This document shows, in pieces, positions 3,569-4,316 of a stretch of DNA of 7,425 bases (its first letter is position 1; the number at the start of each line of letters is the position of its first letter). Source of the stretch: a virus (lineage: Duplodnaviria > Heunggongvirae > Uroviricota > Caudoviricetes); the IMG/VR virus record IMGVR_UViG_2690316131_000009. The stretch is one strand, 5' to 3'. The notes under the pieces were generated by a model, which ran no database searches, was not told where the DNA came from, and was given only the letters and a program-made list of their open reading frames with translations. The position numbers were made by a program, and so were the translations under genes.

Positions 3569-3598
3569 TGTTGTCGTCAACAGGCAACGTGCTATCAT
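3569..3598 (+). promoter_or_regulatory. Candidate parDE promoter with overlapping inverted-repeat operator
   Basis: TTGTCG (3571..3576), 16-nt spacer, TATCAT (3593..3598), about 35 nt upstream of the parD ATG. The -35 is embedded in the inverted repeat TGTTG-tcgt-CAACA (3569..3582), consistent with autoregulation by an RHH antitoxin. Confidence 0.4.
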
Positions 3599-3633
3599 CG
3601 AATGGTGTTCTATCCTACTCCGTGAGGTTTACC

Positions 3634-3891
3634 ATGCGTACAACCCAACAATTCAGCATTACATTAACTAACGAAATGGCTGACATGGTGCGCGCCCGTG
3701 TGGCTTCCGGTGCCTATGCTTCAGAAAGCGAGGTCATTCGTGAAGGGCTTCGCGCACTGAATGAGCGCGATAAAGCAATCGAAGCGTGGTTAACGCATTC
3801 AGCCGCCCCCTCTCTTGATTCTATCCGCGAAAACCCAAACAACGGACGCTCCATTTCACAGGTTCGCGCCGCGATTCGATCCGGGAAGTAA
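3634..3891 (+). CDS. parD: ParD-family (RHH/CopG-like) type II antitoxin
   Basis: 85 aa from the ATG at 3634, preceded by GTGAGG. Sequence MRTTQQFSITLTNEMADMVRARVASGAYASESEVIREGLRALNERDKAIEAWL fits a ribbon-helix-helix antitoxin. The ORF-track start at 3571 is a TTG extension. Ends 5 nt before the toxin gene. Confidence 0.85.
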   Translation: MRTTQQFSITLTNEMADMVRARVASGAYASESEVIREGLRALNERDKAIEAWLTHSAAPSLDSIRENPNNGRSISQVRAAIRSGK

Positions 3892-3896
3892 TCTGC

Positions 3897-4196
3897 ATGA
3901 CATATGAAGTCATCATTACTCCTGAGGCCGAACAACAAATAATCAACCTGCACAGGTATATAACGGAGAAAGCAGGGAACGTCATTGCTGACAATTATGC
4001 CAATGCGCTTCTTGATTATCTTGATGGGTTTTCTACATTCCCGCATCGGGGCAATAAACGCGATGATATTCGCCAGGGGATGCGGGTAACTCATTTCCGC
4101 CACAGAACGATTATTGCTTTTGCCGTTGATAGCAGAAAAGTCTTTATTGTCGGTATCTATCATGGTGGGCAAAGTTATGAAACCGATTTCTTATAA
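3897..4196 (+). CDS. parE: ParE/RelE-superfamily type II toxin
   Basis: 99 aa, immediately downstream of the RHH antitoxin. Typical size and conserved basic/aromatic C-terminal region (RQGMRVTHFRHRTIIAFAVDSRKVFIVGIYHGGQ). Confidence 0.85.
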   Translation: MTYEVIITPEAEQQIINLHRYITEKAGNVIADNYANALLDYLDGFSTFPHRGNKRDDIRQGMRVTHFRHRTIIAFAVDSRKVFIVGIYHGGQSYETDFL

Positions 4197-4278
4197 ACTT
4201 TTACCCACATCATTCCGGTGTTAGAATTAACCGTCCGCCCCCCTCTCTTACTGGCGGATTCGTAGGCTATATAAATCA

Positions 4279-4316
4279 AAGATCCCGGCTCATGTTTATG
4301 TCGGGATCTTTTTTCG
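4279..4316. terminator. Bidirectional intrinsic terminator between parE and the convergent HNH cassette
   Basis: 9-bp perfect stem AAGATCCCG/CGGGATCTT with a 14-nt loop. Followed by TTTTTT on the plus strand (after parE) and by a T-rich tract on the minus strand (after the micropeptide stop at 4322). Confidence 0.6.

Follow-up and report, generated by a model that had tools for sequence, protein, structure and literature searches.

Phage morons are extra genes, with their own promoter and terminator, carried by lambdoid phages. The PaaR-PaaA-ParE systems reportedly described by Hallez et al. in 2010 have a third gene, for a regulator, and their antitoxin is without a DNA-binding domain. The solved ParDE systems used here for comparison are Caulobacter ParDE1 (3KXE), Mesorhizobium ParDE3 (5CEG, 6X0A), V. 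cholerae ParDE2 (VcParDE2; 7R5A), M. tuberculosis ParDE1/2 (8C24, 8C26) and P. aeruginosa ParDE1 (6XRW). At the VcParDE2 operator the promoter overlaps a short symmetric element (PMC10776004), and the relBE pair has been described as integrated into hokD (PMC6379469).

The stretch of DNA analysed here (7,425 nucleotides; the window) comes from a Qin/Rac-like E. coli lambdoid prophage, in which parDE lies antisense among the minus-strand genes of the nin region. Part of an IMG/VR contig matches the window at 100% identity, and no complete E. coli genome in our collection holds it intact as a whole, the best match being a 96.5% mosaic. We put the probability at roughly 85% that the parDE locus is a bona fide type II operon, carried as a phage moron in a variable slot of the nin region, and we predict that it forms an autonomous transcription unit expressed in the lysogen. 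The pair as such is already catalogued in RefSeq and PHROGs, and little about it is new: RefSeq names the products ParD and 'RelE/ParE family toxin' (WP_001260977.1 and WP_000220601.1, in hundreds of STEC genomes) and annotates the pair in 324 complete E. coli genomes, while PHROGs files both families (6494 and 5232) in its moron category, as moron toxin and antitoxin. Our searches of the literature turned up no experiments on this parDE pair in particular.

The parDE operon and its slot

The two ORFs are small, adjacent and co-directional, with the antitoxin first and a gap of 5 nt between the parD stop codon and the start of parE, and the same antitoxin-first order is found in the 83 parDE loci and in Noviherbaspirillum. 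The parD gene (3634–3891, plus strand) encodes an 85-residue antitoxin in which an RHH DNA-binding domain at the N-terminus (residues ~6–51) is followed by a C-terminal tail. Seven nucleotides upstream of its ATG is a GAGG Shine-Dalgarno motif (3623–3626, plus strand), read from the sequence and invariant in the alignment of diverged copies. The parE gene (3897–4196, plus strand) encodes a 99-residue toxin of the ParE fold. As originally predicted, both proteins are real homologues of their families: ParD matches Pfam ParD_antitoxin (PF03693; E = 1.6e-7, 32.1 bits, cut-off 21), TIGR02606 (E = 1.5e-14, 53.8 bits, cut-off 46.2), PHROG 6494 and the PDB ParD entries 3kxe, 7b22, 5ceg and 8c24, and ParE matches Pfam ParE_toxin (PF05016; E = 4.5e-10, 40.4 bits, cut-off 23), real ParE toxins in a profile search of the PDB and ParE-type structures in Foldseek. 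For the C-terminal half of ParD, no match to solved ParD/ParE systems was detectable. In the near-identical region of O26:H11 11368, RefSeq places all other genes on the opposite strand, so parDE is the sole plus-strand unit and runs antisense to the phage operon, as had been proposed.

The homology breakpoints enclose a parDE cassette at about 3549–4320. In the hok-type phages L003 and L004 the match to the window ends at 3548 and starts again at 4321, and in ArgO145 and a Salmonella prophage (L011) it starts at 3551, placing the left edge at 3549/3551; these limits are very close to the extent first given for the module, 3569–4316. Among hok-type phages, 689R5 and 606R7 share the window sequence up to 3548 and from 4321, with hok between. 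Alignment against Qin and other lambdoid prophages, which had been suggested as a check, thus revealed alternative cassettes between the same flanks, with sharp junctions at 3548/3551 and 4320/4321. The slot holds hok/sok, Doc with hok, rem with hokD and relBE (K-12 Qin), parDE with hok, or parDE with a PstI-type restriction-modification system in related phages. The proposal of a toxin-antitoxin swap at a conserved slot therefore stands with regard to the slot and its alternative cassettes, but not as a strict swap: since variants exist that combine parDE with hok (the two coexist in L078–L083) or with restriction-modification genes, 'additive hotspot' is the more fitting name for it.

The slot lies between the conserved 90-aa/DUF968/RusA/AntQ-like genes and upstream ea22/HNH-type genes. 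On its left, the conserved 90-aa gene (PHROG 1212; 3226–3498, minus strand) sits upstream of DUF968 and has a 5' UTR with two hairpins (3508–3543, minus strand; 3525–3543 and 3508–3522) that are also present in hok-type phages, the hairpin at 3525–3543 resembling the 5' hairpin of IsrK. The identification of the 90-aa gene as rem was rejected, as BLASTP gave no alignment to Rem; K-12 rem is placed inside the variable slot. On the right, a 27-aa hydrophobic ORF (4322–4405, minus strand), read from the sequence, is coupled by an ATGA overlap to a 114-aa ORF (4402–4746), and this segment also abuts the hok cassettes of L003 and L004. The slot upstream of the 90-aa/DUF968 genes is thereby mapped precisely as a recurrent hotspot of E. 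coli lambdoid prophages for addiction and defence cargo, comprising hok, Doc, RelBE, ParDE and type II restriction-modification.

The opposite reading, which the original prediction had set against itself, is that parDE is contiguous ancestral phage sequence with no alternative contents at this position. Consistent with this, the 90-aa/DUF968 flank is contiguous with parDE in 58 of the 82 loci that have a parE-covering match, and in GC content the cassette resembles its flanks, with no foreign mark. However, 4570 of 5426 E. coli genomes have the left flank and only 324 have parDE, and closely related phages differ in whether the cassette occupies this position. Further copies of the parDE core (3551–4196) lie in the early-left region of ArgO145, an Stx2a phage, in a prophage of Salmonella and in one more context, making four genomic contexts in all, with a homologous chromosomal, non-phage pair in Noviherbaspirillum. 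Together with the sharp breakpoints at 3548/3551 and 4321 and the other cassettes found between them, these counts leave an ancestral origin scarcely tenable.

The same set of loci bears on whether the module is a decaying, non-functional remnant. One copy in 83 has a truncated parE (L088), and four have lost the parE stop codon and extend to 103–122 aa, but the pair is nearly always intact: ParD is so at all 83 loci, and ParE is full-length or longer at 81, the one further copy being cut by a contig end. Both genes are under purifying selection (dN/dS about 0.06–0.14 at dS up to 1.08; 0–0.07 for ParD and 0.09–0.14 for ParE), and the promoter core and terminator are conserved, which makes decay very unlikely. 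We also regard as quite improbable that the toxin is a RelE-like, ribosome-dependent mRNA interferase and not a gyrase poison. Pfam PF05016 does cover the whole RelE/ParE superfamily, the RefSeq name commits itself merely to 'RelE/ParE family', and YoeB, HigB2, YafQ and RelE appear lower in the Foldseek list; yet the ParE family profile recovered only real ParE toxins from the PDB, with none of the RelE/YoeB/HigB/YafQ type, and the best 22 Foldseek matches of the AF2 model (pLDDT 83) were all ParE-type (TM 0.72–0.81), the RNases entering only from rank 23 (TM 0.44–0.63). The partner, moreover, is a ParD-family RHH antitoxin (TIGR02606). The closest solved ParE toxins are just 13–25% identical to the window ParE, which, going by its fold family, may be a DNA gyrase poison.

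Predicted promoters and terminator, and the palindrome

The promoter scan placed a sigma-70-like site, PparD, at 3571–3598 (plus strand), with the -35 hexamer TTGTCG (3571–3576), a 16-nt spacer, an extended -10 element TGcTATCAT (3591–3598) and a predicted transcription start at ~3605. By itself the scan is at chance level, with 3 sites where 2.1 would be expected; across the four diverged contexts, however, spacers vary but the -35 core and the -10 do not, and this constancy agrees with the promoter-like element originally assigned to parDE. A divergent PisrK-like promoter was found by the scan at 3551–3580 (minus strand; -35 TTGACG at 3580–3575, 18-nt spacer, -10 AATATT at 3556–3551). It points towards the 5' UTR of the 90-aa gene and is homologous to the promoter directly upstream of Rfam isrK matches in L011, L084 and L002. 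PisrK is a verified promoter in Gifsy-1 (PMC4825925), and its minus-strand counterpart in the window may be active too. The genes downstream of the PisrK-like promoter are 90-aa/DUF968/RusA/AntQ-like here and isrK-C4-antirepressor in the ArgO145 and Salmonella phages. The window itself gave no Rfam match at E ≤ 1 and so contains no sok, isrK or C4 gene. In L002, L011, L084, L086 and L087, ARAGORN detected no tRNA on the upstream side of parDE, and motifs there that resemble GGTTCGAATCC, considered as tRNA or att remnants, proved to be C4 and isrK RNAs.

A palindrome over the -35 had also been predicted. The palindrome is present (TGTTG-TCGT-CAACA, 3569–3582), and it coincides with two overlapping divergent -35 boxes, those of PparD and of the PisrK-like promoter. 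Its 13-nt core (3569–3581) is exact in 83 of 83 parDE loci and absent from all nine loci without parDE. Although this invariant core overlaps the -35, as autorepression would have it, the divergent hexamers explain it equally well and require no operator function; a role as operator for the RHH protein ParD is possible.

The candidate terminator is a hairpin at 4278–4314 with a 12-bp stem (4278–4289 with 4300–4311), a 10-nt loop and a T-run on the plus strand (4309–4314); the minus strand has GATTTATAT after the stem. A consensus terminator scan over 3200–4700 found no terminator, because the 10-nt loop exceeds the limit of the scan, and the hairpin was assessed by folding and covariation in its place. 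It folds at -20.7 kcal/mol (z = -3.9 on the plus and -4.0 on the minus strand) and carries two independent compensatory pair changes, with 98.6% of cells paired and the observed value reached in 4 of 500 shuffles. The terminator had been described as shared with the convergent cassette; a covarying hairpin is indeed there, but its presence in 310 genomes, against 324 with parDE, assigns it to the parDE cassette. The 124-bp segment in which it lies (4197–4320) is found in the same number of E. coli genomes, tracks parDE and is never obviously alone, and it was rejected as an independent sRNA element. Its first part is the 3' untranslated segment of the cassette (4197–4277, plus strand), which has a weak promoter-like site at 4200–4227. 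Since hok-type phages have an intrinsic terminator at the same place, the suggested interruption of read-through would not be special to parDE. The cassette's own promoter and terminator are thus apparent at the level of sequence and conservation.

Possible roles

We propose that PparD (3571–3598) would drive a bicistronic parD-parE mRNA ending at the 4278–4314 hairpin. From what is known of the family, ParD would dimerise through its RHH domain and repress its own promoter at or near the invariant 3569–3581 core, and its C-terminal tail would neutralise ParE; if ParD were no longer replenished, free ParE, judged by its fold, would poison DNA gyrase. The most likely role of such a module is selfish addiction, that is, retention of the prophage segment, and exclusion of other phages is possible; these roles fit the other occupants of the slot, namely hok/sok, Doc, RelBE and type II restriction-modification. 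The cassette has probably moved between phage contexts by recombination at its left edge, within the shared PisrK-like promoter and IsrK-5'-hairpin sequence. This edge, common to isrK-C4-antirepressor modules, offers both a plausible recombination handle and a possible regulatory overlap.

Anti-phage defence of the lysogen, through abortive infection or superinfection exclusion, might be the main selected role rather than addiction: an infecting phage that stops host transcription or degrades ParD would set ParE free. A PstI/BsuBI-type II restriction-modification system directly beside parDE in the slot points this way, as does the presence of hok and Doc there, and the defence-rich prophage hotspots documented for P2/P4 (PMC9122126) provide a precedent. 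However, PADLOC defence-system models gave no family match to ParD or ParE at E ≤ 0.01, and we found no literature report of phage defence by the parDE pair. Defence as the main role is thus possible without being our favoured view, and it is compatible with addiction, not exclusive of it. A further proposal concerns regulation. ParD or ParD-ParE bound at the 3569–3581 core might repress both PparD and the back-to-back PisrK-like promoter, and in this way antirepressor or late-regulator genes of the phage would come to be expressed according to the state of the toxin-antitoxin pair (toxin:antitoxin ratio, ParD proteolysis). P22 offers a parallel in Mnt and Arc, RHH repressors that act at its divergent Pant/Pmnt promoters; we consider this dual repression by ParD doubtful.

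This uncharacterised ParE lineage is widespread: prophages of O26, O103, O145 and O111 STEC carry it, as do Stx2a phages. Should ParE poison gyrase and thereby trigger SOS, the induction of Stx phages could be affected.

Comparison with known systems

Like the solved ParDE systems, the window pair is an antitoxin-first bicistron with an RHH ParD, a presumed toxin-binding tail and a toxin of the ParE fold (TM 0.72–0.81), and as in VcParDE2 its promoter overlaps a short symmetric element. Unlike them, it belongs to a prophage, where it lies antisense in the nin region with its -35 overlapping a divergent PisrK-like promoter, and it is known from sequence and predicted structure, with its ParE at 13–25% identity. 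PaaR-PaaA-ParE of E. coli O157:H7 prophages (5CW7, 5CZF) is likewise a prophage system with a ParE-fold toxin in pathogenic E. coli (TM ~0.8), but the cassette has two ORFs and not three, ParD itself carries the RHH domain, and identity is only 17–18%.

The original prediction placed the relBE-hokD genes of Qin-type prophages at the equivalent position, beside DUF968/rem. The gene order of K-12 Qin (ydfT-ydfU-...-rem-hokD-relE-relB) bears out the position, but the neighbour of DUF968 is not rem. Window positions 2175–3515 align at 85% to K-12 ydfU and a 92-aa ORF, and homology with Qin stops at 3515. The Qin module thus occupies the same slot, adjoining an unannotated 92-aa gene and ydfU (DUF968) and upstream of a Q-like gene, and there a type II toxin-antitoxin pair has been added beside hok. 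Transcription of relB-relE-hokD in Qin follows the direction of the phage operon, while that of parDE opposes it; the Qin toxin is RelE, an RNase, and that of the window ParE; and the Qin set of rem, hokD, relE and relB in one direction is not what the window holds, rem and hok being absent from it.

The hok/sok cassettes of vB_EcoS-689R5, 606R7 and 640R1 and of ST131 and O157:H7 prophages have identical or homologous flanks and are addiction-type modules in the same slot. Unlike parDE, they are type I systems (RNA antitoxin), co-directional with the phage operon, and they end in an intrinsic terminator that the parDE cassette replaces. In ArgO145, the Salmonella prophage L011 and L084, parDE stands back-to-back with isrK, with overlapping -35 boxes. 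Compared with the isrK-C4-antirepressor (immI-like) modules, such as the Gifsy-1 isrK locus and P1/P7 c4-ant, the window retains the first IsrK-like hairpin as well as the PisrK-like promoter but has no isrK or C4 gene, and unlike in those modules the promoter faces the 90-aa/DUF968 genes. Phage morons are a further parallel: the neighbours of parDE are conserved whether or not the cassette lies between them, and the cassette brings a promoter-like site and a terminator of its own.

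Identity and conservation of the ParDE pair

The window represents the nin region of a lambdoid, Qin/Rac-like prophage of E. coli, and all of its phage genes lie on the minus strand. From the right end they comprise a DnaC-like replication gene, then DUF977, DUF4406 and ea22-like genes, DUF4014 (5110-5328), HNH (4743-5108), a 114-aa ORF (4402-4746), a hydrophobic 27-aa ORF (4322-4405) and, beyond parDE, a 90-aa gene (3226-3498), DUF968 (2175-3224), RusA (1803-2162) and a DUF1133/AntQ-like gene (1264-1794). The two plus-strand ORFs between 3498 and 4322 are parD (3634-3891; 85 aa), whose product matches PF03693 (ParD_antitoxin; 32.1 bits, cut-off 21) and the ParD-family antitoxin model TIGR02606 (53.8 bits, cut-off 46.2), and parE (3897-4196; 99 aa), matching PF05016 (ParE_toxin; 40.4 bits, cut-off 23). 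In 324 complete genomes of E. coli, most of them O26, O103, O145, O45 and O111 STEC, RefSeq names the same pair a ParD family antitoxin and a RelE/ParE family toxin. These matches and annotations confirm the ParD/ParE module of the original prediction. It is also the only plus-strand unit, as the near-identical region of O26:H11 strain 11368 has only parDE on that strand. The PHROGs 'moron' category includes both families, and a literature search turned up no experimental work on these two proteins. The module is a standard ParDE toxin-antitoxin moron, already annotated in databases, for which we infer toxicity, target, autoregulation and biological role.

Since PF05016 spans the entire RelE/ParE superfamily, the assignment to ParE rather than RelE was checked separately. 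A profile of 18 homologues from Escherichia, Salmonella, Yersinia, Enterobacter, Erwinia, Desulfovibrio and Noviherbaspirillum gave five real matches in the PDB, all ParE toxins (6X0A, 5CEG, 8C24, 7YCS and 3KXE), and a sixth to a de novo designed protein (E 0.45). When the AlphaFold2 model of ParE (pLDDT 83, pTM 0.75) was submitted to Foldseek, the best 22 matches of this predicted structure were ParE-type toxins (TM 0.72-0.81), with YoeB, HigB2, YafQ and RelE appearing from rank 23 on (TM 0.44-0.63). The N-terminal half of ParD aligns with the RHH domains of solved ParD proteins. Identity of ParE to any characterised ParE is only 13-25%, and it belongs to a lineage of this well-known family that has yet to be characterised.

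Among 83 parDE-bearing loci, parD is intact in every one and parE encodes 99 aa in 77; four copies have lost the parE stop codon and extend to 103-122 aa, one is truncated and one is cut by a contig end. Against the copies from Salmonella and L084, a comparison locus, dN/dS was 0.06-0.07 for parD and about 0.11 for parE (dS up to 1.08). Purifying selection acts on both genes. Copies differ mostly in the final ~90 nt of parE (window 4111-4196; loci L071 and L078), where identity is 66-87% versus 95-100% over parD. With parE dS 3- to 12-fold that of parD, this points to recombination breakpoints within the 3' part of the toxin gene.

Downstream of parE, a plus-strand terminator is predicted (12-bp stem, 4278-4289 with 4300-4311; 10-nt loop; T-run to 4314; -20.7 kcal/mol, z -3.9). 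An equally stable fold forms on the opposite strand (z -4.0), but the U-tract after it is interrupted. When 12 distinct versions are aligned, 98.6% of cells are paired, and two base pairs show compensatory changes, A-U to C-G and U-A to G-C, in different lineages, covariation matched by 4 of 500 shuffles. The 124-bp 3' segment including this terminator tracks parDE, occurring in 310 genomes and only with it. Upstream of the terminator, the parE 3' UTR (4200-4259, plus strand) carries a promoter-like TTTACC-16-TAGAAT with TG and a CCGCC...GGCGG hairpin, and could yield a 3'-UTR-derived sRNA of about 80 nt.

Predicted overlapping promoters and the link to isrK at the left edge

A promoter scan predicted PparD on the plus strand (3571-3598; TTGTCG-16-TATCAT with an upstream TG) and a PisrK-like promoter on the minus strand (3580-3551; TTGACG-18-AATATT), in a region where promoter-like sites were not above chance in number. 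We compared four diverged upstream variants, those of the window type, the Stx2a phage ArgO145, the Salmonella prophage L011 and L084/86. Invariant in all four are AATAT (3551-3555), TGTTGTCGTCAAC (3569-3581) and GTGCTAT (3590-3596), and the segments separating them (13 nt and 8 nt) vary. All 83 parDE loci have an exact copy of the 13-nt core at 3569-3581, always 328 nt upstream of the parE start, and it is absent from nine fetched loci lacking parDE. This pattern fits two putative back-to-back promoters with a common -35 region.

In ArgO145, L011 and L084, Rfam places isrK directly left of parDE (53-81 bits; gathering score 50) and a C4 antisense RNA after it (67-71 bits; gathering score 45), with an ORF6N antirepressor next in ArgO145 and L011; this arrangement is an immI-like module. 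The isrK counterparts lie at 3572-3648 and 277-350 in L011, 3574-3648 in L084 and 4168-4241 in ArgO145. Next to parDE, the isrK 5' end falls 6-7 nt downstream of a minus-strand -10 (TATATT) that aligns to window 3551-3556, and the accompanying -35, TTGACG, is the right half of the palindrome. PisrK was verified experimentally in Gifsy-1, and read-through from it also drives downstream genes (PMC4825925). Rfam finds no isrK gene in the window. What remains at the left edge of the cassette (3525-3580, minus strand) is the PisrK-like promoter, followed by a hairpin resembling the first one of IsrK (GCACGCCAGC...CTGGC, 3525-3545); these are joined to the 5' UTR of the 90-aa gene. The hairpins also occur in hok-type phages, where TACAAT precedes them. 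In one locus, L015, the GCTGGCGCAGCAGGTGCCAGTTGTTCAAGCTGG hairpin region of that 5' UTR is duplicated in tandem (about 3560-3650, corresponding to window 3510-3548).

The palindrome noted over the -35 is present as an invariant core, but two overlapping divergent -35 boxes can account for it: TGTTGTCGTCAACA is the predicted TTGTCG (plus) overlapping the predicted TTGACG (minus). The right half is intrinsic to PisrK, given that the other isrK copy of L011, which has no parDE beside it, shows TTGACT as its -35. RHH antitoxins do use short symmetric promoter sub-sites, for example V. cholerae ParD2 (PMC10776004), and ParD may bind at TGTTGTCGTCAACA as a candidate operator; the palindrome by itself is no evidence of one. 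The overlap of PparD with the PisrK-like promoter, the only mildly novel angle here, could couple ParD repression to phage regulatory genes, which we regard as improbable.

Movement of the cassette between contexts

On sequence comparison, the parDE cassette is mobile between genomic contexts. The 90-aa/DUF968 flank is contiguous with parDE in 58 of the 82 loci with a parE-covering match, 17 more being cut by a contig end. The left breakpoint is 3551 in ArgO145, its IMG/VR copy and L011, and 3538 in L084, L086 and L087; 11 loci have their right breakpoint at the parE stop codon (4194-4196) and 30, the largest group, at the end of the 27-aa ORF (4405-4408), with others further right. ArgO145 has a counterpart of window 3551-5431 (98.7% identical) beside the antirepressor in its early-left region, where parDE is again antisense to its neighbours, and a ParD-ParE pair with 49-51% identity occurs in a non-phage part of the Noviherbaspirillum chromosome. 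Transfer would plausibly have used the shared PisrK/IsrK-5' sequence as a recombination substrate. The 114-aa/HNH/DUF4014 block (window 4402-5431; 98.7% identical to ArgO145 5098-6119) is in the early-left region there versus the nin region here, and it and parDE appear to have moved jointly between the two operons.

The nin slot and its counterpart in K-12 Qin

In phages vB_EcoS-689R5 and vB_EcoM-606R7, similarity to the window ends at 3548 and resumes at 4321; the intervening stretch of about 1.1 kb carries hok ('host killer protein') and a 130-aa ORF. The left flank of phage 640R1 likewise matches as far as 3548, with hok adjoining, but on its right side similarity does not resume at 4321. 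In hok-type phages the 56 nt after the equivalent of 3548 form a phage-strand intrinsic terminator (CCCGC-TTCG-GCGGG plus T-run) that immediately precedes the 90-aa gene's 5' UTR (about 4222-4277 in L003, 4238-4293 in L005; also L004, L007, L009 and L010), and exactly this segment is replaced by parDE or by parDE plus a lipoprotein gene. The left flank (DUF968 and the 90-aa gene) is present in 4570 of 5426 E. coli genomes, parDE in only 324.

Contents sampled between the 90-aa/DUF968 genes and the upstream nin-region genes were hokD alone (ST131 and O157:H7 prophages); Doc, a small ORF and hokD; rem, hokD and relE-relB (K-12 Qin); parDE alone (the window and O26 11368); parDE, a 117-aa lipoprotein-like gene and hok, followed in L079 and L080 by the window flank from 4321 on; and parDE with a PstI/BsuBI-type restriction enzyme and methyltransferase. 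Given these flank matches and alternative contents, the proposed swap at a conserved slot is right in essence, though 'additive hotspot', collecting addiction and defence cargo, describes it better. The restriction system (L071 4353-7264, minus strand; also L072 and L073) lies immediately downstream of parDE and pairs a type II endonuclease (360 aa) with an N6-adenine methyltransferase (610 aa). The lipoprotein-like ORF (MNRTICFLLVFAISGCV...; L078 4362-4715, plus strand) lies between parE and hok in L078-L083 and has no Pfam or PADLOC match. At the right boundary, the 27-aa ORF, which lacks annotation in RefSeq O26 11368 and in L003 and L004 borders hok cassettes, may encode a small membrane protein; its ATGA overlap with the 114-aa ORF stop codon suggests translational coupling of the two.

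Interruption of read-through by the cassette had also been proposed. Expression of downstream genes need not depend on read-through, since the hok-type slot normally has a phage-strand terminator and the parDE cassette keeps an outward PisrK-like promoter. No N gene is annotated in the DicA/DicC-type immunity region of the O26 relative. That prophage (L092) encodes there a second type II pair, a HigB-family toxin and an HTH antitoxin (12102-12766; NC_013361.1 1226101-1226765).

The gene next to DUF968 is not rem, as had been supposed: the 90-aa protein gave no BLASTP alignment with K-12 Rem, and MG1655 carries an intact, unannotated 92-aa homologue (PHROG 1212; L006 4307-4585, about NC_000913.3 1644306-1644584, minus strand) between ydfU and rem. 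The rem gene itself is part of the variable slot of K-12. The predicted equivalence with relBE-hokD of Qin holds for position, these genes occupying the slot in K-12, and insertion of relBE into hokD there is already in the literature (PMC6379469). It fails for orientation: relB-relE-hokD is co-directional with ydfU, ydfT and the phage genes, whereas parDE in the window is antisense.
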